A stretch of 64,000 nt of DNA from NCBI GenBank assembly GCA_963819815.1, contig CAWFXL010000001.1, positions 960,001 through 1,024,000 of the forward strand, in the 5' to 3' direction. Positions 21,438 to 38,301 of this stretch are shown piece by piece. The notes under the pieces are model-generated. The model made no database searches. It worked only from the letters and a program-made list of their open reading frames with translations, and was not told where the DNA came from. A program made the position numbers and the translations under genes. Every line of letters starts with the position of its first letter. The stretch's first letter is position 1. This stretch comes from an uncultured bacterium. GTDB lineage: Bacteria; Babelota; Babeliae; Babelales; Babelaceae.

Positions 21438-21439
21438 AG

Positions 21440-22375: not shown

Positions 22376-22390
22376 GACAGTAATCCTTAA

Positions 22391-23527
22391 TTAGGCAGCA
22401 GCTACTTTTCCACCGGGACGTTCAGGAGTAGCTAAGGCACCATTTTTACTATAATAATAAAAATAATAGATCCCAGCTACGGCTGTTAATGCTCCCACAA
22501 TGGCACTAGCTTTATTAAATTTGTGTGCTTTTCTATCCGCTATAAGCTTTTCTTGGGCTTTGCGTTCGCTTTCTTTACGATCTCGAATGTCATTAAGAGC
22601 ATTAAGACGATCCCTACTTAACGTTGGCCGTAGTAAGGCCTTGAGCTCATTAAGGCGGTCTTGTTTAGCTCCATCTTGAGGATAAGAAGCTTCAAACAAA
22701 AGCCATTCATCAAATGGTATGCTCGATAGACCTGCCTTTATAAGGAACTTTGATTCAATTCGGGGATCTTTTACCAGCGCCTCAAACCCATCAATCGGAG
22801 GGATAACGCCTTCAATCTCACCATGTATGTAGCCAAATGCAGCATTTGAAAGAGCCCTATTATCCCCATCAGGAACATCCAATAAATGTGCGTATGCATC
22901 ATTACGTAAGAAAGTTTGAATGACTTGCAGACGGCCTTGGTAACAAGCAGCACTCCAATCCTGCAGAGTAAACCCATCTTTCAGCTGAGGATCTCCAGAG
23001 AGAGGGAATGATTTCCTCTTCCAAATTGCCTGTTCAATAAAACCTAGAACCTGTCCCACCATTCCATCATTACCATGCTTTTTTCGAAATGCTTGAAACT
23101 GTCGAAACCCCCAACCTGCTTTATCGGTTATAAAATCAAGGACCTCTTGCTTGACTGAATCGAGTAATTTTTTCGTATCTTCTGGCTTAGCCGCTGCAGA
23201 CGCTGTAAAATCACTAAACCATTGTATGGCTGTCTCTTTTAACTGACCCAATGTTTCTGGATCTGAAATAACTCCCCGTACCATGCCAGCAGCATTATTA
23301 ATGAGAATATCCCCAAACACCGCTCTTAATTGAGGGTTCTGGGCATTGGCAAGAATTGCATTCCCAATGAGCGCCTGGAATTCGGGACTATCAGCATTTT
23401 GATTAATCGCATTGCGAATAAAGGCTTGCATAGCAGGATCTTGAGCGCCACCACCGCGGTTCATTGCTTGAATCGATTCAAAGCTTGAGACAATGAGTGT
23501 TGCAATTAAGAATCGCTTTAATAGCAT
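22391..23527 (-). CDS. Secreted protein with C-terminal TM anchor; shares leader and promoter with the repeat family but lacks the repeats
   Basis: MLLKRFLIATLIVSSFESIQAM leader; tail AIVGALTAVAGIYYFYYY...VAAA. Confidence 0.8.
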   Translation of the reverse strand: MLLKRFLIATLIVSSFESIQAMNRGGGAQDPAMQAFIRNAINQNADSPEFQALIGNAILANAQNPQLRAVFGDILINNAAGMVRGVISDPETLGQLKETAIQWFSDFTASAAAKPEDTKKLLDSVKQEVLDFITDKAGWGFRQFQAFRKKHGNDGMVGQVLGFIEQAIWKRKSFPLSGDPQLKDGFTLQDWSAACYQGRLQVIQTFLRNDAYAHLLDVPDGDNRALSNAAFGYIHGEIEGVIPPIDGFEALVKDPRIESKFLIKAGLSSIPFDEWLLFEASYPQDGAKQDRLNELKALLRPTLSRDRLNALNDIRDRKESERKAQEKLIADRKAHKFNKASAIVGALTAVAGIYYFYYYSKNGALATPERPGGKVAAA

Positions 23528-23584
23528 AGTGTTCCTTCACGCCCATAGAGATACATAGTTTCAACTGTTACGTCCAGTAATACC

Positions 23585-23613
23585 ACAATACCATAAAATA
23601 AGTCTATCTTCAA
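23585..23613 (-). promoter_or_regulatory. Cassette sigma70 promoter copy 1
   Basis: TTGAAG-N17-TATTGT with TGn extension. Confidence 0.75.
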
Positions 23614-23693
23614 AGGCCCGAGTACTTTGCTGCCTCCAGCAAGGCCTGGGGGAATGCCAAGTATGCCTTTTAGGTAAGCCCCTAGAATGGAGA

Positions 23694-23725
23694 AGAGCCT
23701 GTGCCTATACTAGAGTACAGGCTCT
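23694..23725 (-). terminator. Cassette terminator hairpin copy 1
   Basis: AGAGCCTGT...ACAGGCTCT inverted repeat just after the stop of 23741..25324. Confidence 0.75.
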
Positions 23726-23740
23726 CATTATGATTCTTAG

Positions 23741-25324
23741 TTACGCTGCGGCAGGCAGGGCCTGCGGCTTCTCAGAAACGTTCTTCTTAGGATCTTTATA
23801 GATCATATAATAGTACAAGAGACCTGCACCAGCAGCGAGGGCGCCAAGTCCTACCGCCTTAGACCAATTAGCCTTTTTACCATCATGAGCATTGGTTGTC
23901 GTAGACTTAAAGAGATCTGATAAGTCATTCCTCTTAAGAGCATCAATTCTTTGGGCAAGCGTTATTTTCTTATCAAAATCATAGTAGATTTTATGAGCAT
24001 CTACTTTAACGAAGTCTTGCCATTCCTTCAGATCTGCAAATACCTTTTGATCTTGTTCATAGGCTTTAAATAAAGTCAGTACTATCGATTCCTGGTTCCG
24101 ACGAGCACCTTGAAAAAGTTTAGCTACAGCTAGTGCCTCTTTCCTATGAGCATCAGTGATTAAACGCTCCGTTATGCGATCTCCGATCGTATCTTTAAGC
24201 AGGCGATAGTATACCTTATCTATGTCTACAGGAAATTGATTAAGCCAGCTTTTAAGGTCATCATATACCCCATTATCATGTTCATAGGCTTTATATAAAA
24301 CCCGAACTACTTCTTTCTCGAATGAGCGATCCCGCTGTACAACTGCAGCAGCGGCTAGCGCTTTTTGCCTTGTCGTGGGAGAATTGAGAAGCTCCGTAAT
24401 GCGCTCTCCAATCTTCTTGCCTGGATTGGCTGGATCATAGTCAACTTCATCTACATCTTCTCTTCCTTCGAGCCCATCAACCCATTTTTTCAGATCCTCA
24501 AGTACCTCTAGGTCGCTTTCATATGCCCTATAGAGGGTTTGCATTACTATATCATTTTTTGATCGCTTCTCCTCAACAATCATGGCAACTGCCAATGCAG
24601 CTTTCCTCGTTGCCTTCTCTTGTAAGCCATCTGTAATATGATCACCAATCTTCTTGCCTGGACTTGCTGGATCATAGTCAATCCTATCGATATCTTCTTC
24701 GAACTCATCAATCCACGTTTTCAGATCTTCTAGTGCCCTTGGATCGCTTTCACAAACTTTACACAAAGTCTGCAATACTGATTCTTTCTTCGAACGAGTA
24801 TCTTGCACAATCTTAGCAATTGCTAATGCATCTTTTCGAATGCTGGCTTCTAAAAGTGTGGCGATGTCCTCACCAATCGTGCATTGTATGTGCTGTACAA
24901 GGCAACTGCCCCTTTCAATATCAATCTTAATAGCATCTACATCTTCCTCGAAATGATAGAGCCAATCTTGCATATCAGCCAATACCTTTTGATCATTTTC
25001 GTAAGCTTCATACAGTGTCTTGAAAGTTTCCTTCTTATTTGAGCGACTATTTTGTACAAGCTTAGCAATGGCTAATGCTCCTCTCCTATGTACTGTCCTC
25101 AAACCGTAAGTAATGAGCTGGCCTACAGTCATGCCTGGCTCAATTAAAAGTTTATCAACATCACATACATTTCTTTTGAAGCGCTCTTCAAAGGCCCTAT
25201 AGGCAGCTTTATCTACAAGAGCCGTTTCAAGAAGTGCTATGAAAGTAGGATCAGCCATCGCTTGAATCGATCCAAAACTTGAGACTATGAGGGTCACCAT
25301 TACCAGTCGTTTTGATAGCATCAT
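23741..25324 (-). CDS. ~76-aa tandem-repeat protein (5 repeats + cap), signal peptide, C-terminal anchor
   Basis: DVD..YDP..PGK.IG.RIT..L.....RK.ALAVA..VQ..RS.K..V..TLY.AYE.D.....DLK.W repeats; ends LPAAA. Confidence 0.88.
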   Translation of the reverse strand: MMLSKRLVMVTLIVSSFGSIQAMADPTFIALLETALVDKAAYRAFEERFKRNVCDVDKLLIEPGMTVGQLITYGLRTVHRRGALAIAKLVQNSRSNKKETFKTLYEAYENDQKVLADMQDWLYHFEEDVDAIKIDIERGSCLVQHIQCTIGEDIATLLEASIRKDALAIAKIVQDTRSKKESVLQTLCKVCESDPRALEDLKTWIDEFEEDIDRIDYDPASPGKKIGDHITDGLQEKATRKAALAVAMIVEEKRSKNDIVMQTLYRAYESDLEVLEDLKKWVDGLEGREDVDEVDYDPANPGKKIGERITELLNSPTTRQKALAAAAVVQRDRSFEKEVVRVLYKAYEHDNGVYDDLKSWLNQFPVDIDKVYYRLLKDTIGDRITERLITDAHRKEALAVAKLFQGARRNQESIVLTLFKAYEQDQKVFADLKEWQDFVKVDAHKIYYDFDKKITLAQRIDALKRNDLSDLFKSTTTNAHDGKKANWSKAVGLGALAAGAGLLYYYMIYKDPKKNVSEKPQALPAAA

Positions 25325-25384
25325 GTTCCTTTAGCCTCATAGAGACGTATAATCTGCATTTTTGTGGTCCAGTTCAGTACTACT

Positions 25385-25413
25385 ACGATATCATAAAATA
25401 CAACTCTCTTCAA
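25385..25413 (-). promoter_or_regulatory. Cassette sigma70 promoter copy 2
   Basis: TTGAAG-N17-TATCGT with TGn extension. Confidence 0.75.
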
Positions 25414-25499
25414 AGACCAGAGCTTTCCTCATATCTGAAAGCATTGAAGGGCTTCGCCTTTTCCGCCTAATCTCCGTAGAAATTTCCAACACATACGAA

Positions 25500-25530
25500 A
25501 GAGCCTGTACCCATTATAGGCACAGGCTCT
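25500..25530 (-). terminator. Cassette terminator hairpin copy 2
   Basis: AGAGCCTGT...ACAGGCTCT followed by T residues on the minus strand. Confidence 0.75.
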
Positions 25531-25545
25531 CGTATTAATTCTTAG

Positions 25546-26745
25546 TTACGCTGCAGCAATCAGGGTCTGAGGTTTCTCAGAAATAGTATTTTTAGGATCT
25601 TTGTAGTTCATATAATAGTACAGGAGCCCTGCACCAGCAATGAGCGCTCCAACTATTCCAGCCTTCTTGCTCATTGACCATTTGGCCTTTTTAGCATCAT
25701 CAGCATTAGCTTTTGGTTTTGCATTGGCATCAGAAGGAGCTGACTTGGAGAGCTTAAAGATATTTGTTACATCATCTCTTTTGAGACCTGCAACCCTTTG
25801 AGCAATCGTTATCTTCTTGGCAGAATCATAATAGATTTTACTACTATCTGCTTGAACAAATTCTTGCCATTCCCTCAAGTCTGCAAATACCTTTGAATCT
25901 TTTTCATAAGCTTTAAATAAGGTCACGAGTACAGAGTTCTTTCTTGAGCGAACTCCCTGTGCAAGCTTAGCAAATGCTAATGCCTCTTTCCTGTGTTCGT
26001 TCGTACTTAAGCGCTCTGTAACACGTTCACCAATCGTCTTGCCTGGACGTGCTGGATCAAAGTCTATAGCATCTATATCTTCTCCGCCCTCTAAGAAAAG
26101 ATCGAACCAATAGTGTAGATCCTCAAGAGCTGTTAAATCGTTTTCATAGGCTTTATAGAGGGTTTGCAGTACTGATTGGTAATTGGAACGATCAACGTAT
26201 AGAATATCTGCAACTTTTATTGCTTCTCTTCTCGTCGCTTTCTCTTGTAAACGCTTTGTTAGGTGTTCACCTATAGTCATATCACGCTTAGCAGGATCAT
26301 AGTATAGTTTATCAACGTCTGGGCGAGCATACTCAACCCAATCTTCTAGCTCATCCAGTACTACTAACCCGCTTTCATGACCCTTATATAAGGTCCGGGT
26401 AACTGATGGCTTATCACTTCGTTTAACATACACAAGCTTAGCCACAGCCAAAGCTTCTTTCGTAAGGCTAAATACTACTTTATGCCTCCGAACAACCTTG
26501 TCGAGTCTCTCATTAACCAAACCCTCATTAATGAACTGGCCTACTGTCTTCCCTGGCTCAATAAGACGGTCATCAACATCAAAAGTGTCTCTTCTATAAT
26601 AATCTTGAAAGGCTTTATAGGCAGTATGATCAACAAGAGCCCTTTCAAGTAGCTCTTTAAAAGTAGGATCAACCATATCCATAGCTTGCATCGATCCAAA
26701 GCCTGAGACACCGAGAACTATAATTAAAAGACGTTTTAATACCAT
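25546..26745 (-). CDS. ~76-aa tandem-repeat protein (3 repeats + cap)
   Basis: Same leader, repeat and anchor; ends LIAAA. Confidence 0.88.
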   Translation of the reverse strand: MVLKRLLIIVLGVSGFGSMQAMDMVDPTFKELLERALVDHTAYKAFQDYYRRDTFDVDDRLIEPGKTVGQFINEGLVNERLDKVVRRHKVVFSLTKEALAVAKLVYVKRSDKPSVTRTLYKGHESGLVVLDELEDWVEYARPDVDKLYYDPAKRDMTIGEHLTKRLQEKATRREAIKVADILYVDRSNYQSVLQTLYKAYENDLTALEDLHYWFDLFLEGGEDIDAIDFDPARPGKTIGERVTERLSTNEHRKEALAFAKLAQGVRSRKNSVLVTLFKAYEKDSKVFADLREWQEFVQADSSKIYYDSAKKITIAQRVAGLKRDDVTNIFKLSKSAPSDANAKPKANADDAKKAKWSMSKKAGIVGALIAGAGLLYYYMNYKDPKNTISEKPQTLIAAA

Positions 26746-26802
26746 ACTATTCCTTCATGCTCATAGAGGTGTATCGTTTTCAACTTTTACGAACTGCTTA
26801 TT

Positions 26803-26831
26803 ACACTAGCAAGAAATAGCTCTCTTTTCAA
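26803..26831 (-). promoter_or_regulatory. Cassette sigma70 promoter copy 3
   Basis: TTGAAA-N17-TAGTGT with TGn extension. Confidence 0.7.
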
Positions 26832-27015
26832 AGACCTTAGTTTTGCAGAACTCAGAAAACAAAAAAAACATTATATAGTTGGAGCGAACCTTTAGAATGA
26901 GAAGCTCTAACTAGAGGACCGAAGTAGATCATCAGATTACCTAATGCGGATCGCTGCCATCTGCAAAAAAAATAAAATCTCGCTTCTCTATACAATCTGA
27001 TTATCTACATTGGAA

Positions 27016-27045
27016 AGAGCCTGCACTCCATCGTAGGCAGGCTCT
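27016..27045 (-). terminator. Cassette terminator hairpin copy 3
   Basis: AGAGCCTGC...GCAGGCTCT inverted repeat. Confidence 0.75.
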
Positions 27046-27056
27046 CGAAATGATTC

Positions 27057-28604
27057 TTATGCTGCAGCAGGCAGAGTCTGCGGCTTTTGAGAAATAGTAT
27101 TCTTAGAATCCTTGGCATTCATAAAATAGTACACGAGTCCTGCACCAGCAATGAGTGCTCCAACTACTCCAGCCTTCTTACCCATTGACCATTTACCATC
27201 ATGAGTTATTTTTCTATCTACTTTATAGACTTTTTTATCTATATTTGGGGTTGCAGGAGAAAGCTTAAAGAGATTCGATACATCATCCCTCTTGAGAGTT
27301 TCAATTCTTTGAGCAAGCGTTACCTTCTTATCAGAATCATAATAGATTTTACTACTATCTGCTTTGACAAAGTCTTGCCATTCTTTTAGATCAGCAAATA
27401 CCGTCGTATCTTTTTCATAGGCCTTAAACAAGGTCACCAGTACTGAGTGCTTATTTGAGCGGGTTCTCTGTGCAAGCTTAGCAAATGCTAATGCCTCTTT
27501 CCTGTGCTCATTTGCACTAAGCTCTGTAAATCGTTGACTATCTTTACTTACAGGAGCACCGACCGCGCCAGCCCCCTTTTTTTTGGAGAAAAAGGCCCCA
27601 AACGGATTGCCTAGAGAACTAAACACTGAAGGTGCAGTCTCTTTTACTGAAGTATCCTTGCTTTGTGCATTCATGTTTAAACGCTCCGCAAGACGATCCC
27701 CAATGGTCTTACCAGGCTTAGCAGGATCATAGTCTATAGTATCTATATTGTCTGCCTCCTCCTCGAACTCATTAAGCCAATTTTCCAGATCTTCGAGTGT
27801 TGTCGGATCGCTTTCATAGGCTTGGTAGAGGGTTTGCATTACTGAACGCCTATTTGAGCGCTGCGTATCTACAATTATAGCAATCTCTAATGCTTCTTTT
27901 CTTGTCTCTTTTGCGCGTAAGAGCTCCGTAATGCGCTCTCCCATAGTTTGCTTACTCTTACCATTATAGTAGAACTGATCTACGTCTAGAGGGAACTTCT
28001 TAATCCAACTTTTTAGATCGTCCAACACGTCTTGACCACTTTCATACGCCCGATAGAGGGTATGAAAAACTGAACATTCCAAAGAGCGATAAGGCTGAAA
28101 AAGCTCAGCAACTGCTAAGGTTGCTTCTCTCGTCTCATCAACATCTAAACGCTCAGTAATCCGATCAGCAATGGTCTTATCACTCTTCTTCGCAGGATCC
28201 TGGTAATGGTACCGATCTATGTCAGGTTGAGCGTACGGAACCCACCATGCTATAGCATCTAATACCGCATAACCATTCTCATAAGCTTTGTATAAAGTTC
28301 TAATAACCGATCGCTTATCGGTTCGCCTACAATGCACAATTCGAGCAACTAAAACCGCTGTGTTCGTATGAGTAACCAAAGCTTCAGAAATGCGTTGACC
28401 TACAGTCTTACCTGGCTCAATAAAAAGTTCATCAACATTACACATATCGCCGTTGAAATGATTTCTGAAGTCTTCATTAGCAGCCCGATCAATGAGGGCC
28501 CTTTCAAGAAGCTCTTTAAAAGTAGGATCAACCATATCCATAGCTTGCATCGATCCAAAGCCTGAGACCACGAGGATTATAATTAAAAATCTTTTTAATG
28601 GCAT
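27057..28604 (-). CDS. ~76-aa tandem-repeat protein (4 repeats + cap, with ~50-aa insertion)
   Basis: Same family; ends LPAAA. Confidence 0.88.
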   Translation of the reverse strand: MPLKRFLIIILVVSGFGSMQAMDMVDPTFKELLERALIDRAANEDFRNHFNGDMCNVDELFIEPGKTVGQRISEALVTHTNTAVLVARIVHCRRTDKRSVIRTLYKAYENGYAVLDAIAWWVPYAQPDIDRYHYQDPAKKSDKTIADRITERLDVDETREATLAVAELFQPYRSLECSVFHTLYRAYESGQDVLDDLKSWIKKFPLDVDQFYYNGKSKQTMGERITELLRAKETRKEALEIAIIVDTQRSNRRSVMQTLYQAYESDPTTLEDLENWLNEFEEEADNIDTIDYDPAKPGKTIGDRLAERLNMNAQSKDTSVKETAPSVFSSLGNPFGAFFSKKKGAGAVGAPVSKDSQRFTELSANEHRKEALAFAKLAQRTRSNKHSVLVTLFKAYEKDTTVFADLKEWQDFVKADSSKIYYDSDKKVTLAQRIETLKRDDVSNLFKLSPATPNIDKKVYKVDRKITHDGKWSMGKKAGVVGALIAGAGLVYYFMNAKDSKNTISQKPQTLPAAA

Positions 28605-28662
28605 AGTATTCCTTTATGCTCGTAGAGGTATATCTTTTTCGACTTCATGTTCAGTACTACAT

Positions 28663-28691
28663 ACCATAGCATGAAATACGTATCTCTTCAA
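28663..28691 (-). promoter_or_regulatory. Cassette sigma70 promoter copy 4
   Basis: TTGAAG-N17-TATGGT with TGn extension. Confidence 0.75.
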
Positions 28692-28777
28692 AGGCCTTAG
28701 TTTTTGCCGCAATACGTAATATCGTGGCAAATTCTCATTATATCTTGTGAGTGATCTCAAGAAAATCGCATTAAAAA

Positions 28778-28809
28778 AGAGCCTGCACTCCATTATAGGC
28801 ACAGGCTCT
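28778..28809 (-). terminator. Cassette terminator hairpin copy 4
   Basis: AGAGCCTG...CAGGCTCT followed by a T run on the minus strand. Confidence 0.8.
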
Positions 28810-28823
28810 CGTATAATTCTTAG

Positions 28824-30185
28824 TTACGCCGCAGCAGGCAACTGAGGTTGCTCTGATAGTTTATTTTTAGAATCTTTATTGTTCATAAGATAGTACAAGA
28901 GACCTGCACCAGCAGCAAGCGCTGTAACAACTCCAACCTTCTTGCCCATTGACCATTTGGCCTTTTTACCATCAACTGGTTGCGTTATCGTAGAGTGCTT
29001 AAAGAGATTTGAGACATCATCCCTGTTGAGAGCTGCAACTTTTTGAGCAATCGTTATCTTCTTAGCAGAATCATAGTAGATTTTGCTAACATCTGCTTTA
29101 ACAAATTCTTGCCATTCCTTCAGATCACTAAATACCGTTGGATCTTTTTCACAGGCTTTAAATAAGGTCAGCAATACTGAATTCTTCAGTGAACGGGCAC
29201 CTTGCACAAGCTTAGCAACAGCTAATGCTTCTTTCCTATGGGTATTCGTCCTTAGATGTTTTGCGAGGCGATCCCCAATAGTCTCAATACGCTTAGCACG
29301 ATCATAAAATACCATATCTATATCTAGAGGAAACTTCAGAAACCAACCTTCGAGTTCAGCATATACTGCATTATCGCATAGGTAGTCCTTAAATAATTCC
29401 CGGAATATTACCTTCTTGCACGAGCGAGCCTCCTGTACAACGGCGGCAACGGCAAGTGCTTCTTTCTTATCCCTCTGAGTTCTTAAACGTTCTGTAATGC
29501 GATCACCAATAGTCTTGCCCGGATCTTGCGGATTGTAGTCTATTTCATCCACATCATCTGCACCTTCGAATGCAACAATCCATTTTTTTATGTCTTCAAG
29601 TACTGTATGATCTTTTTCATAGGCCGCATACAGTGTTTGCATTACTATATCCCTATTTGCACGGTACTCGTCTACAAGAATGGCAACATCTAATGCTGCT
29701 TTTCGGGTATCTTTTGTCTTTAAGCGATCTACGATGTGCTCACCAATGGTTCCGCCATCCTCATTGGCAGGATCATAATAGATATCATCTACATCTAGGT
29801 AGAGATCGTCGGGAAAATCCTCAATCCAATGTTCTAGATCAGCTAATACTGTCTGATCCTCTTCATGAAGTTTATATAATTCCCGAAAAACTGATGACTT
29901 GTCCGAGCTTTCATTAAGAACAAGCCGAGCAACAGTGAGAGCTGCAGCTCGATGTTGGGTGCCCAAAAATGTATTGATGTGCTGACTAACGGTCACACCT
30001 AATGTGTACATCAGTTCATCAACATCAAATGGGTTAGCTCTGAAATGTTCTTCAAAGGCTTCAAAGTGCTTTTGATCCTGAACAGCCCTATCAAGAAGCT
30101 CCTCGGTGACCTGATCAATCACTGCTTGCACCGATCCAAAACCTGAGATTACAAGGCCTACAATTATAAATCGTTTTAATGACAT
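28824..30185 (-). CDS. ~76-aa tandem-repeat protein (4 repeats + cap)
   Basis: Same family; ends LPAAA. Confidence 0.88.
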   Translation of the reverse strand: MSLKRFIIVGLVISGFGSVQAVIDQVTEELLDRAVQDQKHFEAFEEHFRANPFDVDELMYTLGVTVSQHINTFLGTQHRAAALTVARLVLNESSDKSSVFRELYKLHEEDQTVLADLEHWIEDFPDDLYLDVDDIYYDPANEDGGTIGEHIVDRLKTKDTRKAALDVAILVDEYRANRDIVMQTLYAAYEKDHTVLEDIKKWIVAFEGADDVDEIDYNPQDPGKTIGDRITERLRTQRDKKEALAVAAVVQEARSCKKVIFRELFKDYLCDNAVYAELEGWFLKFPLDIDMVFYDRAKRIETIGDRLAKHLRTNTHRKEALAVAKLVQGARSLKNSVLLTLFKACEKDPTVFSDLKEWQEFVKADVSKIYYDSAKKITIAQKVAALNRDDVSNLFKHSTITQPVDGKKAKWSMGKKVGVVTALAAGAGLLYYLMNNKDSKNKLSEQPQLPAAA

Positions 30186-30239
30186 AGCATTCCTTTACGC
30201 TCATGGAAGATAGCTTCAGCTTTTTACGTACCTTAAGCC

Positions 30240-30268
30240 ACAATACCATAAAATAGGTCTCTCTTCAA
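30240..30268 (-). promoter_or_regulatory. Cassette sigma70 promoter copy 5
   Basis: TTGAAG-N17-TATTGT with TGn extension. Confidence 0.75.
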
Positions 30269-30382
30269 AGGCCTTATGTGCTTCTGGCGATGACATATTT
30301 CATTATATCTCATGAGATACCAAAACATCGAAAGCTTTCACCTGAGACATAGAAGCCCTCATTCACTTCACATGCAATGAGA

Positions 30383-30416
30383 AGAGCCTGCACCCTATTA
30401 TAGGAGTACAGGCTCT
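30383..30416 (-). terminator. Cassette terminator hairpin copy 5
   Basis: AGAGCCTG...CAGGCTCT inverted repeat. Confidence 0.75.
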
Positions 30417-30431
30417 CGTAATGATTCTTAG

Positions 30432-31301
30432 TTACGCTGCTGCAGGCAACTGAGGTTGCTCTGATAGTTTATTTTTATCCTTACTATTCATGTAGTAGTA
30501 CAAGAGACCTGCACCAGCAGCTAGTACTACAACTCCAACCTTCTTACCCATCGACAATTGCATCTTTTTACCATCATTGTTTGTCTTAGGGAGATTAAAG
30601 AGTTTCAACAGATCATCCCTATTAAGAGCTTGAATTCTTTCAGCAATCGTTTCAGAACATGCAGGATCAAAGCGAATCACCTTAACATCTACTTTCACAA
30701 ATTCTTGCCATTCCTTCAGATCCCCAAATACCGATTGATCTATTTCATAAGCTTTGTACAAAGTCCGCAGTACTGATTCTTTCTCCGTACGAGCACCCTG
30801 AACAAGCTTAGCAACAGCTAATGCACCTTTCCGAGCACTATGCAATCTTAAGCGCTGAGCAATGCATTCACCAAAGGTCTTGCCTGGATGGACTGGATCA
30901 TGAACCACCGTATCTACATCTAGAGGGAACTGGTCAAACCAATATTTTAGGTCCTTCAGTGCTGTTGGATCGATCACCTGAGCTTTATATAACTGCCTGA
31001 AAACGTCTGACTTATTCGAGCGACGGTTTTGTATAAGCTTAGCAACAGCTAGTACCCCTTCTCTCTGTTTATAGTACAAACGATGAGAAATAAGCTGACC
31101 TATAGTGACACCATCTCTGCTCATAATGGTATCAACATCAACTCGATTTTTATTGAAGTACTCTTCAAAGGCTTTATAGCCAGCTTGGTCCCGAAGAGCC
31201 CCCTTAAGAAGGTTTTTGAAAGTCTTAAGATCAAACGTAGCTTGAATCGATCCAAAGAATGAGACTATAAGGGTTACCATCAGGAGTCGTTTTACGTACA
31301 T
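30432..31301 (-). CDS. ~76-aa tandem-repeat protein (2 repeats + cap)
   Basis: Shortest family member; ends LPAAA. Confidence 0.88.
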   Translation of the reverse strand: MYVKRLLMVTLIVSFFGSIQATFDLKTFKNLLKGALRDQAGYKAFEEYFNKNRVDVDTIMSRDGVTIGQLISHRLYYKQREGVLAVAKLIQNRRSNKSDVFRQLYKAQVIDPTALKDLKYWFDQFPLDVDTVVHDPVHPGKTFGECIAQRLRLHSARKGALAVAKLVQGARTEKESVLRTLYKAYEIDQSVFGDLKEWQEFVKVDVKVIRFDPACSETIAERIQALNRDDLLKLFNLPKTNNDGKKMQLSMGKKVGVVVLAAGAGLLYYYMNSKDKNKLSEQPQLPAAA

Positions 31302-31352
31302 AGTGTTCCTTTATGGAGATGTATAAGCTTCAACTTTTTCCTACTGTGTACA

Positions 31353-31381
31353 ACAATAGCATAAAATCCCTCTCTCTTCAA
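31353..31381 (-). promoter_or_regulatory. Cassette sigma70 promoter copy 6
   Basis: TTGAAG-N17-TATTGT with TGn extension. Confidence 0.75.
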
Positions 31382-31492
31382 AGGTAGTACATTGCATAAG
31401 AGAAAAGTGCTGTACATTTCTTACTCATGAACCGTTCTTTCCCTCAGGCATTTGCTCCAGCCAATGCCTTCACGAACCCCACTACATGCAAA

Positions 31493-31522
31493 AGAGCCTG
31501 GACTATGATAAGTCCAGGCTCT
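31493..31522 (-). terminator. Cassette terminator hairpin copy 6
   Basis: Perfect 12-bp stem AGAGCCTGGACT / AGTCCAGGCTCT. Confidence 0.8.
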
Positions 31523-31536
31523 CGTACTCATGTAAT

Positions 31537-33105
31537 TTACGCAGCTAGGGTCTGGTGCTCATTTTTAGAATCTTTAGAGTTCATATAATAATAGTAGCAC
31601 AAGACACCTGCACCAGCAGCAAGTGTTGTAAGTCCTAGCGTCTTACCGATTGACCATTTAGCCTTTTTATCATCGGGAGTCTTGGCCTTTGGTTGCGCTG
31701 TAGCAGTTATCTTAAAGAGATTTGTTAGGTCATCTCTCTTAAGAGCTTCAATTCTTTGAGCAATCGTCTCAGGAAGAGCAGGATCAAAACGAATCGCTGT
31801 AATATCTGCGTTAACAAATTCTTGCCATTCTTTTAGATCTGCAAATACGGTTTGATCCTTTTCATACGCTGTATACAAAGTTCGCAATACCGATTCTTTA
31901 TCAGAACGGTCACCCTGTACAAGCTTGGCAACCGCCAATGCATCTTTTCTTGTCTTGTCCTTACTTAAACGCGCTGCAATGCGCTCACCAATGGTTTTAC
32001 CAGCTTTAGCTGGATTATACTGTATCTTATCCACATCATCACCCTCGTACTCATCAAACCAACTTTGCAGTTCTTTCAGTGCTGTTGGATCACTTTCATA
32101 GGCTTTATACAAGGTTTGAAAAACTATATCCTCGTTAGAACGATAATCCTGTACAATCATAGCAATAGCTAATGCATCTTTTCTCGTCGTCTTGTCTTTT
32201 AAAAGCTCGGTAATGCGCTCACCAATAGTCTTGCCTGGATGTGCTAGGTCAGCAGTTTTATCGACATCTTTCTCGAAATCTTTGACCCAACTTTCAAGGT
32301 CTTCAAGCGCTGTTTTATCCTTTTCATAGACTGTATACAAGGTTTGAAATACTACATCCTTGTTCGAACGATGGCTCTGTACAAGCCTAGCAACAGCCAA
32401 TGCTTCTTTTCTCAAAACCCGGTTAGCTAAAAGCTCTGTGATGCCCTCACCAATGGTTTTGCCTGGATGTGCTCCATCAGCAGTCTTGTCTACATCTTCC
32501 TTGAACTCTTCGATCCAATTTTCAAGTTCCGCAAGTGCTGTTTGATCCAATTTACAGAGAGTGTACAAGGTTTGAAATACTTCAACCTTGTTCGAACGAT
32601 CGCCCTGTACAAGCTTAGCAACTGCTAATTCCTGTTTTCTCGTCGCTTGGTAAGTTAAACGTTCTTTAATGCGCGCACCAATAGTCTTCCCTGGCGCATA
32701 GTTCATAGCATCTACATCTTCCTCAAAACCATCAAGCCAACTTTTAAGTTCCTCAAGCGCCGTTGGATCGCTTTCATAGATTGTATACAAGGTTTGAAAT
32801 ACTATATCCTCGTTGGTACGAGCACCCTGAACAAGCTTAGCAACTGCCAATGCTGGTTTTCTAAATTCTTTCTTTTGCAACCGAGCAGTAATGATCCCAC
32901 CTACAGCATTTTTGTTGAAAGTAACTCTATCAACATCATAGGTAACTTTTTTGTACTGTTCTTCAAAGGCTTTATAGTGCTTTAGATCCTCAAGGGCATT
33001 TTTAAGACGTTCTTTGGAAGTCTCATCGAGGCTAGCCATGGCTTGAACCGATCCAAAGCCTGAAACCAAGAGGAGTGTTATAGTTACAATTCGTTTAAAT
33101 AGCAT
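31537..33105 (-). CDS. ~76-aa tandem-repeat protein (5 repeats + cap)
   Basis: Most regular repeats (one counted at 76 aa, DVDKTADGAH...VKDFEK); ends TLAA. Confidence 0.88.
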   Translation of the reverse strand: MLFKRIVTITLLLVSGFGSVQAMASLDETSKERLKNALEDLKHYKAFEEQYKKVTYDVDRVTFNKNAVGGIITARLQKKEFRKPALAVAKLVQGARTNEDIVFQTLYTIYESDPTALEELKSWLDGFEEDVDAMNYAPGKTIGARIKERLTYQATRKQELAVAKLVQGDRSNKVEVFQTLYTLCKLDQTALAELENWIEEFKEDVDKTADGAHPGKTIGEGITELLANRVLRKEALAVARLVQSHRSNKDVVFQTLYTVYEKDKTALEDLESWVKDFEKDVDKTADLAHPGKTIGERITELLKDKTTRKDALAIAMIVQDYRSNEDIVFQTLYKAYESDPTALKELQSWFDEYEGDDVDKIQYNPAKAGKTIGERIAARLSKDKTRKDALAVAKLVQGDRSDKESVLRTLYTAYEKDQTVFADLKEWQEFVNADITAIRFDPALPETIAQRIEALKRDDLTNLFKITATAQPKAKTPDDKKAKWSIGKTLGLTTLAAGAGVLCYYYYMNSKDSKNEHQTLAA

Positions 33106-33153
33106 AGTTTTCCTTTACTGAGGTGTGAGCTTCAATCTTTTACGTACTACTCT

Positions 33154-33182
33154 AACATAGCACAAAATGCGCTACTCTTCAA
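33154..33182 (-). promoter_or_regulatory. Cassette sigma70 promoter copy 7
   Basis: TTGAAG-N17-TATGTT with TGn extension. Confidence 0.75.
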
Positions 33183-33321
33183 AAGCCTTATTTTTATTGC
33201 TATTCCCAAAACGATTCCCTGGTATCTGCAGAATGACACTTTTTTACCATGAAACGCTACCTAGGATTTTTGGTTAAGGAGTAGTTACTATATTCATCAC
33301 CATACATAGATCCACTCATGA

Positions 33322-33348
33322 GAGAGCCTGTACGAGGTACAGGCTCTC
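33322..33348 (-). terminator. Cassette terminator hairpin copy 7
   Basis: Perfect 12-bp stem GAGAGCCTGTAC / GTACAGGCTCTC. Confidence 0.8.
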
Positions 33349-33361
33349 GTATAATACTTAG

Positions 33362-36300
33362 TTACGCTGCCGTAGGAAGAGCTTGCGGCTGGTCAGCACT
33401 ATTCTTTTTAAGATTTTTGTTGATCATATAATAATACACGAAACCTGCGCCAGCAACCACCGCTGCAACCCCAAGAGTTTTGCCCATTGACCAACTGGAT
33501 TGCTTAGGAGCATTAGGTTTGGCATTTGGCACCGGATTTGCCTGGGCTGTAGCAGTTATCTTAAAGAGATTTGATAGGTCATCTCTGCCGAGAGCTTCGA
33601 TCCTTTGGGCGATCGTCTCAGGAAGAGCAGGATCAAATCTAATCGTTGTAACATCAGCATCGACCTTACGTTGCCACTCCTTCAGATCATCAAACACTGA
33701 TTGGTCCTTCTCATAGGCCGCATAGAGGGTTCGCAATACCGATTCTTTATCAGAACGGTCCATCTGAACAATCTCAGCAACAGCTAATGCATCTTTTCTC
33801 GTCGCTGCTGCACTTAAACGCTCAGCAATACGACCACCAATAGTCATACCTGGATTTGTAGGATCATAGTCCGTCGTATCTACGTCCTCTTCGAATCCAT
33901 TGACCCAATTTTCCAGGTCTTTAAACACTGCTGTATCGTTTTCATAGGCTGTATAGAGGGTCTGAAGTACTATATTCTTATTCGAGCGATGATCCCAAAC
34001 AAGTCTAGCAAGGTCCAATGCATCTTTTCGTGTCGCCTTCACACGTAGCTTCTCGGTGATGCACTCACCAATAGTCTTGTTGGGACCTGCTTGATCAGCG
34101 ACCTTATCTACATCTTCCTTAAACGTATCAAGCCACCCTTCCAGGTCATCGAGTGCTGCCGAATCGCTCTCGTAAACTTTAAATAAGGTTTGCAATACTA
34201 CATGCTGATTTGTACGATCATGCTGAACAATTCTAGCAACAGCTAATGCTTCTTTCCTCGTCGCGGCCACGCTTAACCGTTCTGTAAGGCGGTCTCCGAT
34301 GGTCTTGCCTTCATGTGCTGGATCAGCAATCTGGTCTACATCGGGTTCAAACTCATCAACCCAAGTTTTCAGGTCTTCTACTGCAGTTGCGTCACTTTCA
34401 CAGGCTTTACACAAGGTTTGGAACACTCTCAGTTGGTTCGAACGATCCTCCTGTACTATCAGAGCAATAGCCAATGCACGTTTTCTCGTCCTGGCCGATC
34501 GCAACCCTTCTGTGATGCGTCTCCCAATGGTTTCTCCAGGTTTAGATGCATCATAATCGGTTGTATCTACATCTTCCTTATATACTTTGACCCATGATTC
34601 CAGATCCCCTAGTGCCGTCGGATCATTTTCACAAGCTGCACACAAGGCCTGGAATACTACATCCTTCTTCGAACGATCGTCCTGTACAAGCAGAGCAACA
34701 GCCAATGCGTCTGTTCTCGTCCCGTTTGTGCTTAAACGTTCGGTAATACGATCACCAATGGTCTTATCTCGTTTAGCCGAATTATAGCTCAGCTTATCTG
34801 CATTAGGATGGAACTGTTTAACCCAGCTTTTTAAATCACTTAATACAGCAGGGTCCTTTTCATACGCTCTATAGAGAGTTCTGAACACTACGCTCTTATC
34901 TGAACGATGCCGCTGTACAAGCTCAGCAACGGCTAAGGCCTCTGCTCTGTGTGTAGAGTTCAAGCCATCGGTAATAAGCTGTCCTAACGTCTTGTCCGGA
35001 TCATGTAAAAGGACGTCAACATCATAGGTACAAGTACTACATAGTTCTTCAAAAGCTTCATAGGCCGCTTGATCAACAAGAGCCCTCTTAAGAAGCTCAC
35101 CGAAAGTATTAGCATGAGTTCTGTAGCTCTCAATAGCGGGCAAATCCAAAATATCCTCTGGACCGACATTATCAATAGATCGTGCTATTGATAAGTTTGA
35201 ATCGGACTTCATCTTAATAAGATCTATATTCACTCTCTTATCTTTAATAAACTCCTTGAGTGCATCAATTTTGGTCGCATCTATACGGGCAGCTCTCACA
35301 CGTTTACGTAATTCATGTGCTTCAGGTGGATTTGAGCGGAAAGGCTGTAGTGCCGTTCGTAAGGTACTCAGCACACCTTCATGATGATCTGGATTATCAA
35401 GATACCCACCAATAGTACCGTCTGAAAACTTAACCGTATCGATATCTAATGAGTTATCAACAACATGCTGGACAAAAGCGGTAACTCGACTATCAACCTG
35501 ATCTGGTTCAGCAACCAAAGTTTTTCTGAATAGATCACGAACAACCTGGCCATTAAGCATCGCCATAACGTTGTCTTTGTACATAACATCACGACCACTC
35601 AGAGTGTTTACATAGTCAGCAAATGAATCATAATCATCGTAAGCAAAACTTGCAAGCGTAATAGGATTCTCTTGGAATAACAAAAGATGCTCCAGCTCCT
35701 GATGACGAGCCTCATCGCGCAAGCAATGGAGAAGTAAGTTTGTTTTGGCTGAATCACGAGTATTGTGCATCACCCAAAATCTCTTCAAATGAGCACTACC
35801 ATTATCTTCTAAAGGATGGAGTGTATGAAATGTTTTGAGTTCAGCACAGACAACTTTTGTGCGTGCTCTAGTAGCAGGATCACCAAGTTTCGACTTAAGA
35901 TAGTCGTCAAGCGGCATTCCTGTGTACCTTTCAAAAAATGCATCCCAAGAGCTTACGGGAAGATATGCATAGTCGGCAAGGAATGACTTTAGAAGTTTAA
36001 GAGGTACTTTGTCCTCTGTATACTCACAACAGCCAACCACTAAATAGGTGAAAGCCTTCTGTGCATATGAAGGCTGCTCTTCAAATCTCCAATTCTTTAC
36101 TGAAGCAGGGCTTACCCCCTGCAACAGATAGGGCGCACAATGAGCAAGAGTTATTTTTGCATCATCATGGGTAGTTCTTGGATCAAGATCGGTAGCTCCC
36201 TGATCTTCTAACAATCCGATAACCGATCCACCATCGGAATAGTTCAGGGTATCTATAGCAAGTTTTGTATCGGGGTACTGCGCAAAAAAGCTGGTAACAT

Positions 36301-36754
36301 CTTCCGCAGAAATCTTAGCGTTTACCCATTTATCAAATCTTCTGAGAAAAATTGTCTCATCAAAAAGGGCTACGACATCTTTTAGATTTTTTTCCTTGGC
36401 AATGGCTCGGGGAGTCTTTCCATTAACACCCGCCTCTGGATCAGCGTCATAGGTATCAAGAAGACATCTCATTACCTCCTGCGATTGAAGGTCACCACAA
36501 CAAGCAAATTTACCAAGCAGTGTTGTTTGATTCGCATCGCCACTATGATATGCTCCCAAATCTTCTGGCGTTCTAAAGGTTTTCGCCCACGTATCGAGCT
36601 GCGCAATAACACCTGCGGTTCCTCTTTTTTCCTTAAGTAGCTGAGTTGCACTACCATCCCTAAGGAACTGTAGCAAATCATTCTGAGGACCGCTACTTGC
36701 ATACATTGAAGATGCGGATAGACACACTAAACTGGCTATGAACATTTTTGTCAT
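33362..36754 (-). CDS. Large secreted protein: ankyrin-like N-domain, degenerate repeats, 6 canonical ~76-aa repeats + cap, C-terminal anchor
   Basis: Different leader; ANK-like CLLDTYDADPEAGVNGKTPRAIA; repeat region begins near NTFGELLKRALVD; ends LPTAA. Confidence 0.88.
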   Translation of the reverse strand: MTKMFIASLVCLSASSMYASSGPQNDLLQFLRDGSATQLLKEKRGTAGVIAQLDTWAKTFRTPEDLGAYHSGDANQTTLLGKFACCGDLQSQEVMRCLLDTYDADPEAGVNGKTPRAIAKEKNLKDVVALFDETIFLRRFDKWVNAKISAEDVTSFFAQYPDTKLAIDTLNYSDGGSVIGLLEDQGATDLDPRTTHDDAKITLAHCAPYLLQGVSPASVKNWRFEEQPSYAQKAFTYLVVGCCEYTEDKVPLKLLKSFLADYAYLPVSSWDAFFERYTGMPLDDYLKSKLGDPATRARTKVVCAELKTFHTLHPLEDNGSAHLKRFWVMHNTRDSAKTNLLLHCLRDEARHQELEHLLLFQENPITLASFAYDDYDSFADYVNTLSGRDVMYKDNVMAMLNGQVVRDLFRKTLVAEPDQVDSRVTAFVQHVVDNSLDIDTVKFSDGTIGGYLDNPDHHEGVLSTLRTALQPFRSNPPEAHELRKRVRAARIDATKIDALKEFIKDKRVNIDLIKMKSDSNLSIARSIDNVGPEDILDLPAIESYRTHANTFGELLKRALVDQAAYEAFEELCSTCTYDVDVLLHDPDKTLGQLITDGLNSTHRAEALAVAELVQRHRSDKSVVFRTLYRAYEKDPAVLSDLKSWVKQFHPNADKLSYNSAKRDKTIGDRITERLSTNGTRTDALAVALLVQDDRSKKDVVFQALCAACENDPTALGDLESWVKVYKEDVDTTDYDASKPGETIGRRITEGLRSARTRKRALAIALIVQEDRSNQLRVFQTLCKACESDATAVEDLKTWVDEFEPDVDQIADPAHEGKTIGDRLTERLSVAATRKEALAVARIVQHDRTNQHVVLQTLFKVYESDSAALDDLEGWLDTFKEDVDKVADQAGPNKTIGECITEKLRVKATRKDALDLARLVWDHRSNKNIVLQTLYTAYENDTAVFKDLENWVNGFEEDVDTTDYDPTNPGMTIGGRIAERLSAAATRKDALAVAEIVQMDRSDKESVLRTLYAAYEKDQSVFDDLKEWQRKVDADVTTIRFDPALPETIAQRIEALGRDDLSNLFKITATAQANPVPNAKPNAPKQSSWSMGKTLGVAAVVAGAGFVYYYMINKNLKKNSADQPQALPTAA

Positions 36755-37227: not shown

Positions 37228-38301
37228 TTAAGCAGCAGCTGTTTTAACGGGTTGAGATTTCTGGTTACTTGTATAGACATAGTAAAGTGTGGCAACTACC
37301 GCACCCGCACCTAGGCCTATAAGAAGATTCTTACCTCTACTGTTTACTACAGGTGGTTTTGCATCCGTAGGGGATCCAGCACCAGTTTTATCCGGTTTAC
37401 CACCAGTTGGATTAGATGGATCAGCAGGAGTTCCCTCAGATCCATCACCTGTACCAGGAGCAGGTTTTTCTCTCAGATTTAGATCAACACCAATTAGCGC
37501 TTTCAAGCGCGCTAGTACTTCCGCTGAATCTTCACCTGTAAAGCATTTTGCTTCAAGGATGTCGGCAAAGGTTTGATTCTTACTATTCACAAGGTTTGGA
37601 ACCTTTAGATCATTGACAAGATACTCAAAGGTATCAATATTCTGGGTTAACGATCCCCTTAAAGCAAGGATATGTAAAACAGTATTTCCATTTGCATCCA
37701 CGGCAGATGCATTAACACCTTGTGCTACACACCATTGAATAATATCACGATCAAAAACTTGACCTTTTTGGGATGGCGCTGCAAGAATATGTAGTGCTGT
37801 CTTTCCTGAACGAGTTAACGCTGCTGGATTCGCTCCAAGATTAACAAGTCCAGTAACTTTTCCGCCTAGATCTTCCTTAGTGATATCATTTAGTTGTAAA
37901 AGCAGAAGCAATGGAGTATTGCCAGCTTTGTTTGTAACGTTGACGTTAACACCAAGATCAACTAAACATTTGACTAGTTCTAAATCTACATTCAAACCTT
38001 GCTCTCTAACAAGCAAATGAAGACGGGTTTCTTCTCCACCAACATTATATGCGTTGAGCAAATCACTCTTGAGGTAGGTCTCATTTACAAAAGTTCCAGC
38101 ATCTTGTTGTTTTTTAACAAAATCTTTAAATGCATCGCACGTTGCTTCACATTTAAACCATTCTTCGACAGCCAGATTTCGAGCATCAGCTGTTGAGCTG
38201 TTGTACCAATAAGACCAGGCCTTTGGGCTCACCCAACTACCAGCCTGTATGCTTCCCTGAATAAGGGTCACACTCAAAAGACAACCTAAAAATTTCTTCA
38301 T
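37228..38301 (-). CDS. Secreted ankyrin-repeat protein with Pro/Gly linker and C-terminal anchor
   Basis: Start ATG 38301 (GAGG upstream; MKKFLGCLLSVTLIQGSIQA); GNTPLLLLL, GKTALHILA, GNTVLHILA; ends TAAA. Confidence 0.88.
   Translation of the reverse strand: MKKFLGCLLSVTLIQGSIQAGSWVSPKAWSYWYNSSTADARNLAVEEWFKCEATCDAFKDFVKKQQDAGTFVNETYLKSDLLNAYNVGGEETRLHLLVREQGLNVDLELVKCLVDLGVNVNVTNKAGNTPLLLLLQLNDITKEDLGGKVTGLVNLGANPAALTRSGKTALHILAAPSQKGQVFDRDIIQWCVAQGVNASAVDANGNTVLHILALRGSLTQNIDTFEYLVNDLKVPNLVNSKNQTFADILEAKCFTGEDSAEVLARLKALIGVDLNLREKPAPGTGDGSEGTPADPSNPTGGKPDKTGAGSPTDAKPPVVNSRGKNLLIGLGAGAVVATLYYVYTSNQKSQPVKTAAA

Follow-up and report, generated by a model that had tools for sequence, protein, structure and literature searches.

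We analyzed a window of 64,000 nucleotides (contig CAWFXL010000001.1 of assembly GCA_963819815.1, forward-strand positions 960,001 to 1,024,000) from an uncultured bacterium of the Dependentiae (GTDB lineage Babelota; Babelaceae). Positions 23741-36754 of this window hold an array of seven adjacent open reading frames (ORFs) on the minus strand, named here g1 to g7 with g1 at the lowest coordinates. All seven encode tandem copies of one repeat that matches no repeat family in Pfam, that is predicted to form a helical solenoid, and that is set between putative signals for export and membrane anchoring. The array is composed as follows (window coordinates).

23741..25324, minus strand: g1, 527 amino acids (aa); predicted signal peptide, N-terminal cap (N cap), five repeats, C-terminal cap (C cap), linker, predicted transmembrane helix, and a tail closing in LPAAA
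25546..26745, minus strand: g2, 399 aa; architecture like that of g1, with three repeats
27057..28604, minus strand: g3, 515 aa; four repeats
28824..30185, minus strand: g4, 453 aa; four repeats
30432..31301, minus strand: g5, 289 aa; the minimal member, with two repeats between the caps
31537..33105, minus strand: g6, 522 aa; five repeats; the protein modeled with AlphaFold2
33362-36754, minus strand: g7, whole ORF, 1130 aa
33362..35023, minus strand: C-terminal part of g7 (aa 578-1130); six canonical repeats, C cap, predicted transmembrane helix, and a tail closing in LPTAA
35024..36754, minus strand: N-terminal part of g7 (aa 1-577); predicted signal peptide, ankyrin-like fold, helical region, and divergent repeats of the YRSNPPEA type
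36335-36688, minus strand: ankyrin-like fold of g7 (about aa 23-140), from predicted structure

A profile hidden Markov model (HMM) was seeded with 11 repeats from two of the proteins, g6 and g7. Run over all seven, it detected 5, 3, 4, 4, 2, 5, and 6 copies in g1 to g7 (29 in total), the same counts as those in an earlier note made from the DNA sequence alone. The whole copies have domain i-E-values of 3e-40 to 4e-17, and the array is far beyond chance. The repeat unit is 75-79 residues long (about 77), and the 29 copies, aligned over 79 profile positions, share the consensus DVDxxxYDPxxxGKTIGxRITERLxxxxxRKxALAVAxLVQxxRSxKxxVxxTLYKAYExDxxVLxDLKxWxxxFxxDx. Mean column identity is 32%, four columns (L, A, L, and W) are invariant, and pairwise identity over match columns ranges from 27 to 78% with a median of 45%. 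The two halves of the unit have no mutual similarity (hhalign probability ≤0.2%), and an internal duplication as its origin was rejected.

The earlier note had quoted five sequences of the loop that follows DVD, every one of which was found in the repeats, and had called this loop variable. The loop does differ in length and sequence among copies, but it has a consensus of its own (x-x-x-Y-D-P-A-x-P-G-K) and few length classes and is not free-form. Among the 28 loops scored, the common lengths were 11 (n = 12), 8 (n = 7), and 10 residues (n = 5), with one loop each of 7, 9, 12, and 13; the regular expression behind this count skipped g7 repeat 2, which begins with NAD, and read as 11 residues the 18-residue loop of g1 repeat 2, the sole long loop in the array.

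Searches of the seven whole proteins and the 29 single repeats against Pfam found no repeat family, including ANK, HEAT, ARM, TPR, Sel1, PPR, PUF, and TALE. This agrees with the earlier note, which had not recognized the repeat as ANK, TPR, Sel1, ARM, PPR, or TALE. Single-repeat scans gave one weak match each for 12 of the 29 copies, to 12 unrelated families, with a best E-value of 0.001. The ANK models matched none of the single repeats at E≤1 and none of the whole proteins. DNA_pol_D_N in g3 was the sole Pfam model to pass (28.3 bits versus a cut-off of 25.6), and we consider it spurious, being summed from stretches of which none passes alone. For the array proteins, NCBIfam returned nothing over cut-off. 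Among PDB sequences only a designed repeat protein (8g8i) was matched, at E 2e-6 and with no single stretch passing. PHROGs gave weak matches to phrog_19382 (function unknown) in four of the seven proteins (whole-protein E-values of 1e-6 to 2e-3, no single stretch passing). Sub-threshold PADLOC matches to Cas12j/k and a cyclase (E 1.6e-4 to 8.6e-4, 16-18 bits) were set aside as noise from low-complexity helices. A derivation from ankyrin was likewise rejected, as hhalign against six ANK segments of the same window gave a probability of 0.3%. A literature search on Dependentiae repeats and eukaryotic-like proteins, judged by title and abstract, yielded nothing on this repeat; for effectors and gene families of the Dependentiae, the only relevant paper was PMC6561590.

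For the fold, we used an AlphaFold2 model of g6 computed from an alignment of 17 closely related family members. The mean predicted local distance difference test score (pLDDT) is 83.2 and the predicted template modeling score (pTM) is 0.72, with 325 residues at pLDDT ≥90. The confident span covers residues 23-465 (ten-residue block means of 83-96 for residues 31-460), and values below 50 occur only in the signal peptide and in the linker, membrane helix, and tail. A pattern of four helices and one beta-bridged loop recurs five times. In each unit an acidic loop of about 16 residues (..E-E-D-V-D-x-x-x-Y-D-P-x-x-P-G-K) leads into helix A (about 9 residues, T-I-G-E-R-I-T-E-R-L) and helix B (about 15 residues, R-K-E-A-L-A-V-A-K-L-V-Q). 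After a turn (R-S-N-K), helix C (about 11 residues, V-F-Q-T-L-Y-K-A-Y-E) and helix D (about 12 residues, A-L-E-D-L-K-S-W-V-D-E-F) complete the unit. The repeat is thus predicted to be a structured solenoid of a generic kind with a regular loop in every unit, and the modular alpha-solenoid proposed on sequence grounds is supported by this confident model. The C-terminal cap noted earlier on each protein is also real: it is a half repeat made of the hairpin and helix A. Its N-terminal counterpart is likewise a half repeat, similar to helices C and D.

Structural comparisons of the g6 model returned generic matches. Foldseek found no match in PDB at E≤1e-3; the weak rows were HEAT, ARM, karyopherin, and PUF solenoids (best E 3.2e-3, template modeling scores of 0.15-0.32). 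VIA-align was run against 48,161 chains; its scores at this level are common for helical repeats, and a Z below 13 can reflect a common arrangement. The top match was a designed loop-repeat protein, 8fre_B (Z 11.6, root mean square deviation [rmsd] 4.4 A over 174 residues). A Rix1 subcomplex chain and AP2 came next (Z 9.4 and 8.9, rmsd >20 A), followed by short HEAT- or MIF4G-like domains at Z 8-9. Rows of the HEAT/ARM type had Z values of 7-9; short matches, spanning about 160-170 residues, had an rmsd of 4-6 A, and long matches had one of 13-22 A. In a viral structure library, the best of the weak rows were giant-virus ankyrin proteins (E 4e-3).

Several members depart from the regular unit. 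In addition to the long loop of g1, g2 repeat 1 has a 14-residue insertion ahead of helix B, and in the fourth repeat of g3 about 45 residues with a hydrophobic stretch are inserted between helices A and B, such that the HMM scores this repeat as two pieces (2e-9 and 9e-23). This g3 insertion (window 27357-27746, about aa 318-360), whose stretch ..KKG..A..F..L.. is hydrophobic or amphipathic, may interact with a membrane. It is kept in the sister-species orthologs and in two dispersed paralogs (genome coordinates C1:72210-73382 and C1:311464-313473). The ectodomains of six of the seven proteins are acidic (isoelectric point [pI] 4.95-6.39, net charge -2 to -41), and g5 alone is basic, with a pI of 9.3.

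Sixteen proteins of two species, namely, this genome and a sister species, share one plan: an N-terminal segment, the N cap, repeats, the C cap, a linker, the motif KWSMGKK, a hydrophobic segment, and a tail. The N cap consists of two helices like the second half of a repeat, and the C cap is a first-half repeat with the pattern D..KIYYD....T.AQRI.AL.RDDLSNLFK. The linker is rich in Lys, Thr, and Pro and has low confidence in the AlphaFold2 model. Directly ahead of the C-terminal helix lies the conserved juxtamembrane motif K-W-S-M-G-K-K. The hydrophobic segment that follows is rich in Gly and Ala and closes in YYY(M), and the tail after it is 16-22 residues long in all 16 proteins, mostly closing in ...PQ.LPAAA; this tail-end motif is not conserved in the three dispersed paralogs. 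At the N-terminus, all 16 proteins have K/R followed by a hydrophobic segment (15-residue hydropathy of 1.63-2.21), which closes in QA in 14 of them and in YAS in g7 and its ortholog. This segment is predicted to be a Sec signal peptide; both it and the membrane helix were read from sequence and hydropathy.

The array is part of a longer run of genes with similar ends. Twelve consecutive genes on the minus strand (20463-40885), namely, the seven repeat genes, two genes with Pfam ankyrin repeats, and three in which no known domain is present, all encode a hydrophobic N-terminus and a related C-terminal anchor. In the anchor module common to the 12 genes, K..W/S..GK is followed by a Gly/Ala-rich helix, by YY, and by a short tail that often closes in AAA. 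A profile built from the tails of these same 12 genes matches 14 genes genome-wide: the 12 themselves, two dispersed repeat genes, and nothing else. The module looks like a swappable export-and-anchor cassette, onto which ectodomains of unknown type, DVD repeats, or ankyrin repeats would be placed.

Candidate processing systems for such an anchor were searched for in the genome, which is 88% complete. No rhomboid, exosortase, sortase, or S41 peptidase was found in it; PF04203, PF09721, and PF01694 had no match there and did match the control genomes. Among NCBIfam sorting-domain models none exceeded its cut-off, and only MyrrCad gave a score (12.3 bits versus the 33 needed). We therefore rejected the array proteins as substrates of sortase, exosortase, or rhombosortase, given the lack of a sorting domain over cut-off and of a processing enzyme in this genome. 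Some side observations concern the protein ends. The transfer-messenger RNA (tmRNA) gene lies outside the window (C1:1058578-1058946) and encodes the tag peptide AEMPGLNAHVACA, which has only the small-residue ending in common with the array tails (PAAA, TLAA, PTAA). Mimicry of this degradation tag by the tails, as a putative signal for protease recognition, is a speculative idea. Further proteins outside the window (C1:919712-922936 and C1:1588328-1595325) combine an N-terminus resembling a signal with a hydrophobic segment near the C-terminus and tails in ...AAA, and have no match to the anchor profile. Among 286 ORFs of the genome with a C-terminal hydrophobic segment, the commonest ending is AA (14).

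The flanking genes and the intergenic regions of the array are as follows.

20463..23527, minus strand: three flanking genes without the repeat (324, 311, and 378 aa); predicted signal peptide and related C-terminal anchor module; weak ANK match in one of them
23528..23740, minus strand: intergenic region downstream of g1; terminator hairpin, then a promoter-like motif and the AAAGGAA ribosome-binding site of the next gene (22391-23527)
25325..25545, minus strand: intergenic region g2/g1; hairpin of -25.1 kcal/mol, promoter-like motif TTTGAAGAG..TGATATCGT, and AAAGGAA
26746..27056, minus strand: intergenic region g3/g2; terminator hairpin, promoter-like motif, and ribosome-binding site
28605..28823, minus strand: intergenic region g4/g3; terminator hairpin, promoter-like motif, and ribosome-binding site
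30186..30431, minus strand: intergenic region g5/g4; terminator hairpin, promoter-like motif, and ribosome-binding site
31302..31536, minus strand: intergenic region g6/g5; hairpin of -27.4 kcal/mol, promoter-like motif, and ribosome-binding site
33106..33361, minus strand: intergenic region g7/g6; terminator hairpin, promoter-like motif, and ribosome-binding site
37228..40885, minus strand: two flanking ankyrin-repeat genes (383 and 741 aa); hydrophobic N-terminal signal, related C-terminal anchor module, and Pfam ANK

All seven genes have a stop-proximal hairpin (-16.8 to -27.4 kcal/mol) followed by U-rich sequence, and alignment of the intergenic regions gave a common motif (TTTGAAGAG, a gap of about 12 nt, and TGCTATTGT) together with the AAAGGAA ribosome-binding site. 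A loose pattern for the promoter-like motif had 11 matches genome-wide, eight of them before g1 to g6, the next downstream gene, and one dispersed paralog. Judged from these putative signals, each repeat gene is its own transcription unit. The region upstream of g7 (36755-37227) lacks the promoter-like motif of g1 to g6, and the strong terminator hairpin that it contains (37171-37200) is a different one; g7 is thus probably under separate regulation. Ordinary chromosome makes up the remainder of the window, with the diderm markers TamB, a BamD-like protein, LepB, SecA, and an ATPase of the type II secretion system/type IV pilus (T2SS/T4P) kind (45295-47091), as well as further ankyrin genes. 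Among the latter, three tandem paralogs on the plus strand (1250-6180; 504, 488, and 503 aa) have hydrophobic N-termini and make up a second tandem family of exported repeat proteins, if these termini are read as signals.

The largest member, g7, may link the repeat to ankyrin. Its N-terminal 577 residues are kept in distant homologs (27-36% identity) that have one to three canonical repeats followed by the same cap and anchor. An AlphaFold2 model of this part (pLDDT 82.7, pTM 0.54) is all-helical with recurring beta-bridged loops, and the divergent YRSNPPEA units are also detected by the repeat profile. For residues 23-140 of the model, nearly all of the 50 top VIA-align rows were ankyrin domains or DARPin modules, the best being 5u0k_A (Z 11.2, rmsd 2.5 A over 97 residues, 22% identity). 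In the ESM Atlas, residues 20-575 gave leads to clusters of the ANK and OspC types (0.94-0.95) that had few features in common with them; the same resource gave no usable match for g6. The older form was probably a g7-like protein, with the canonical repeat being amplified in this genus. A distant metagenomic homolog of 1024 aa (P0012) has three to four repeat copies at its N-terminus and a long region with Pfam TPR_12 and HEAT_2, with no start resembling a signal peptide; use of the repeat is therefore not confined to one architecture.

The distribution of the repeat is very narrow. A profile search of 1.84 billion representative proteins returned 41 clusters at E≤1e-3, 31 of them at ≤1e-10. 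Eleven of the 41 belong to this genome or the sister species (at least 89% identity), and the other 30 are only 21-41% identical. In whole-genome searches the repeat was present in two of 41 relatives and two of 261 genomes of the phylum, namely, this genome and one other of the same genus; the other eight genomes of the genus lacked it. This genome has ten repeat genes, the array plus three dispersed paralogs. An alignment search of genome contigs for the g7 type gave one record beyond this genome, a metagenome-assembled genome of Candidatus Dependentiae, and a metagenome scan gave the same contig only.

The sister species has a syntenic array of nine genes, comprising orthologs of g7 to g1 and two extra members. 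The latter (sister contig 11884-14480) encode a 236-aa protein with one full repeat and a 519-aa paralog of g3. Repeat number also differs, as the sister ortholog of g6 has four repeats instead of five and g6 repeat 3 has no counterpart; the sister ortholog of g1 lacks the long loop of repeat 2. In a FastTree phylogeny of 62 repeats, first repeats cluster together, as do last repeats, and internal ones group by position across paralogs; every repeat except g6 repeat 3 pairs with its ortholog. This pattern suggests that the family grew by whole-gene duplication with occasional gain or loss of single repeats, and the repeats within the array do not appear homogenized. Loop length is tied to position as well: first repeats all have loops of 7-8 residues, and most others have 10-11.

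The ratio of nonsynonymous to synonymous substitution rates (dN/dS) for the array orthologs is 0.27-0.46 at a dS of about 0.18-0.24; for comparison, seven neighboring genes have 0.02-0.37 and one flanking ankyrin gene has 0.71. Values for the structural elements, pooled over orthologous repeats of the two species, are given below.

Loop: dN/dS 0.42
Helix A: dN/dS 0.23
A-B turn: dN/dS 0.47
Helix B: dN/dS 0.34
B-C turn: dN/dS 0.62
Helix C: dN/dS 0.19
C-D turn: dN/dS 0.27
Helix D: dN/dS 0.34
Linker: dN/dS 0.32

Entropy reaches at least 2.5 bits at 18 of the 79 positions. These lie at the hairpin tip (4-6), in the A-B turn (25-28), the B-C turn (42, 43, and 48), and the C-D turn (60 and 62), in helix B (32 and 38), on the outer face of helix D (70, 73, and 74), and in the linker (77). 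The earlier note had asked for per-site entropy and dN/dS as a test of whether variation maps to one surface. It maps to turns and exposed helix faces, and all elements have dN/dS below 1 (0.19-0.62). The loop is one of several moderately variable surfaces and not a hypervariable one, a comparison of low power with two species. That note had proposed a repertoire created by loop diversification on a conserved framework. This proposal found no support, as high-entropy sites also occur in turns and on helix faces, dN/dS is below 1 everywhere including the loop, and the repeats show positional orthology.

Taking these results together, we see about an even chance that the array encodes lineage-specific, Sec-exported, single-pass, C-terminally anchored alpha-solenoid proteins that probably act as non-enzymatic protein-binding scaffolds in this member of the Dependentiae. 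The fold, signal peptide, and membrane helix in this account are predicted, and from them and the genomic context we infer the location and the binding function. In such a scheme, the units would stack into one rod between the half-repeat N and C caps, and the linker, KWSMGKK, the Gly/Ala-rich helix, and the tail would tether this rod to a membrane. Given a Sec signal and a single C-terminal helix, the rod would project beyond the cytoplasm, whether into the periplasm, from the cell surface, or at the interface with the host. A role as binding scaffold is suggested by a kind of fold that is used in protein-protein recognition, by the cassette held in common with ankyrin proteins, and by the predicted ankyrin-like fold fused to the repeats in g7. 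The repeat proteins may act like, and in the same compartment as, the flanking ankyrin proteins that bear signal peptides, and the family probably expanded as whole transcription units were duplicated, single repeats being gained or lost now and then. A further argument for this reading comes from Chromulinavorax, another of the Dependentiae, in which 78% of the ANK proteins have signal peptides and are regarded as secreted host effectors (PMC6561590). The description of the array in the earlier note as host-interacting or surface proteins is still inferential and is strengthened only by the export and anchor signals and by the physical and genomic link to ankyrin domains.

Several observations weigh against this interpretation. 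The C-terminal helix is only marginally hydrophobic, with a 19-residue Kyte-Doolittle mean of 1.18-1.65. The 12 residues before it have a net charge of +2 to +4, compared with +0 to +3 (mostly +1 to +2) in the tail, a pattern that is the opposite of the positive-inside rule for an N-out anchor and a poor fit to a simple N-out/C-in topology. The topology is less certain because of these two features. Pfam ANK was not found in the N-terminus of g7 or in four distant homologs, and the ankyrin label there comes from predicted structure only. The g6 model was derived from 17 closely related sequences, and AlphaFold2 tends to be confident on regular helical repeats. With only two of the 261 phylum genomes having it, the repeat does not belong to the life style of Dependentiae in general. 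Finally, the dN/dS values are not the signature of an arms race and fit a housekeeping envelope role equally well.

Such an envelope role is one alternative, in which the proteins, held at the inner membrane by their anchors, would be spacers or scaffolds in the periplasm. They would have no target in the host and would organize peptidoglycan, the outer membrane, or transport machinery. The topology signals are compatible with it, as are the purifying selection and the positional orthology of the repeats. The acidic DVD..YDP loops may resemble extracytoplasmic cation-binding loops, and the window contains the envelope genes for TamB, a BamD-like protein, LepB, and SecA. However, presence in two of 261 phylum genomes and in one of nine other genomes of the genus is odd for a core envelope function, copy and repeat numbers differ between two species at a dS of only about 0.2, and the family is clustered with, and apparently fused to, ankyrin domains; we consider this alternative unlikely. 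The same variation in gene and repeat number between the two species, along with seven tandem paralogs whose repeats vary in loop length and sequence, might instead point to a diversifying repertoire for antigenic variation, with the loops presenting changing epitopes or specificities. This is very unlikely, as dN/dS is below 1 in every structural element, the loop included (with the limited power of two species), loop length follows repeat position with 7-8 residues in first repeats, repeats pair with their orthologs without homogenization or shuffling, and the high-entropy sites occur across four turns and on helix faces. A modular nucleic-acid reader akin to TALE, PUF, or PPR, with one repeat per base, is scarcely credible. 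It would accord with the regular helical repeats and with the PUF and PPR chains among the weak Foldseek rows (E 0.012-0.017), but not with a signal peptide and membrane anchor, with six acidic ectodomains out of seven, with the lack of Pfam matches to TALE, PUF, or PPR, or with repeats that are 27-78% identical and have no specificity-position pair standing out.

A further possibility, that of effectors inserted into host membranes, stays alive because the helix is marginally hydrophobic and because of how charge is distributed around it. After Sec export the proteins would be released through a type II-like route or vesicles, and the C-terminal helix, with its flanking lysines, would serve like a eukaryotic tail anchor in the membrane of a host organelle, from which the solenoid would face the host cytosol. 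Secreted membrane proteins can escape the bacterial membrane if their hydrophobicity is mild, and here positive charge flanks the helix on both sides, more before than after, at a distance of 16-22 residues from the C-terminus in all 16 proteins. Ankyrin proteins carry the same module, ankyrin domains normally act in the eukaryotic cytosol, and a T2SS/T4P-type ATPase gene is located in the window (45295-47091). Secreted ANK effectors and vesicles have been proposed for Chromulinavorax (PMC6561590). Yet a stop-transfer helix downstream of a signal peptide is the classic signature of a bitopic protein that resides in the bacterial membrane. A literature search linking Dependentiae to tail anchors found nothing, and the tail-end motif is not kept in the three dispersed paralogs. 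We therefore find insertion into host membranes unlikely. Still more speculatively, the cassette as a whole (signal peptide, swappable DVD-repeat or ankyrin domain for binding, KWSMGKK, weakly hydrophobic small-xxx-small helix, and tail of about 19 residues closing in small aliphatic residues) could be an unrecognized Dependentiae device that would carry Sec-exported proteins out of the bacterium and tail-anchor them in host organelle membranes, with the four-helix repeat, a bacterial invention, replacing ankyrin as the binding module facing the host cytosol, a proposal that we regard as quite unlikely.

Dependentiae are widespread, almost wholly uncultured parasites of protists, and their handling of hosts is known only by analogy with ankyrin effectors. 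If the proteins are anchored binding scaffolds as favored above, the array would represent a second, home-grown repeat scaffold beside ankyrin that uses the same export and anchor signals. What is new here is an uncatalogued family of repeats, modular in architecture, very narrowly distributed, and confidently predicted to form a solenoid. Lineage-specific expansions of secreted repeat proteins are already known and common in intracellular bacteria, and on present evidence the array is no new kind of biology. The repeat is a clean candidate for a new Pfam family, and g5, with 289 residues, offers a tractable entry point to the fate of signal-peptide-bearing repeat proteins in this phylum.

Among known systems, the ankyrin proteins of intracellular bacteria and giant viruses resemble the array proteins in their stacked helical repeats, the beta-hairpin-like loop between units, and tandem expansion in a host-dependent bacterium. 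The neighboring ANK genes have the signal peptide and C-terminal anchor in common with the repeat genes, and an ankyrin-like fold is predicted to be fused to the repeats in g7. The units differ, however: that of the array has 75-79 residues, four helices, and one beta-bridged loop, whereas the ankyrin unit has 33 residues and two helices. At the C-terminus, the LPXTG/sortase, PEP-CTERM/exosortase, and GlyGly-CTERM/rhombosortase signals are alike in having a short motif (KWSMGKK in the array) before a C-terminal membrane helix of exported proteins. Unlike these, the array proteins end in a tail of 16-22 residues and not in a short basic stub, and no cognate enzyme was found in the 88%-complete genome.

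The HEAT, ARM, and MIF4G families would share with the predicted solenoid a right-handed stack of helical hairpins, and the structural matches include PP2A-A, karyopherins, the C-terminal domain of TAF6 (4atg_A; Z 8.7, rmsd 3.9 A over 159 residues), and MIF4G. The array proteins have no sequence match to these families and are set apart by the structured acidic loop and by the bacterial context of export and anchoring. The closest likeness is to RBL4 (PDB 8fre), a de novo "buttressed loop" repeat protein (design paper, 10.1101/2023.08.22.554384), which also has a long structured loop in every helical unit; 174 of its 205 residues were matched, covering the N cap and two repeats. RBL4 is artificial, with 16% identity and no evolutionary relation to the array, and the match says no more than that a geometry like the predicted one is reasonable in physical terms and lends itself to the presentation of loops. 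With this limit, the array would provide a compact natural example of a loop-buttressed repeat architecture that is otherwise best matched by de novo design.

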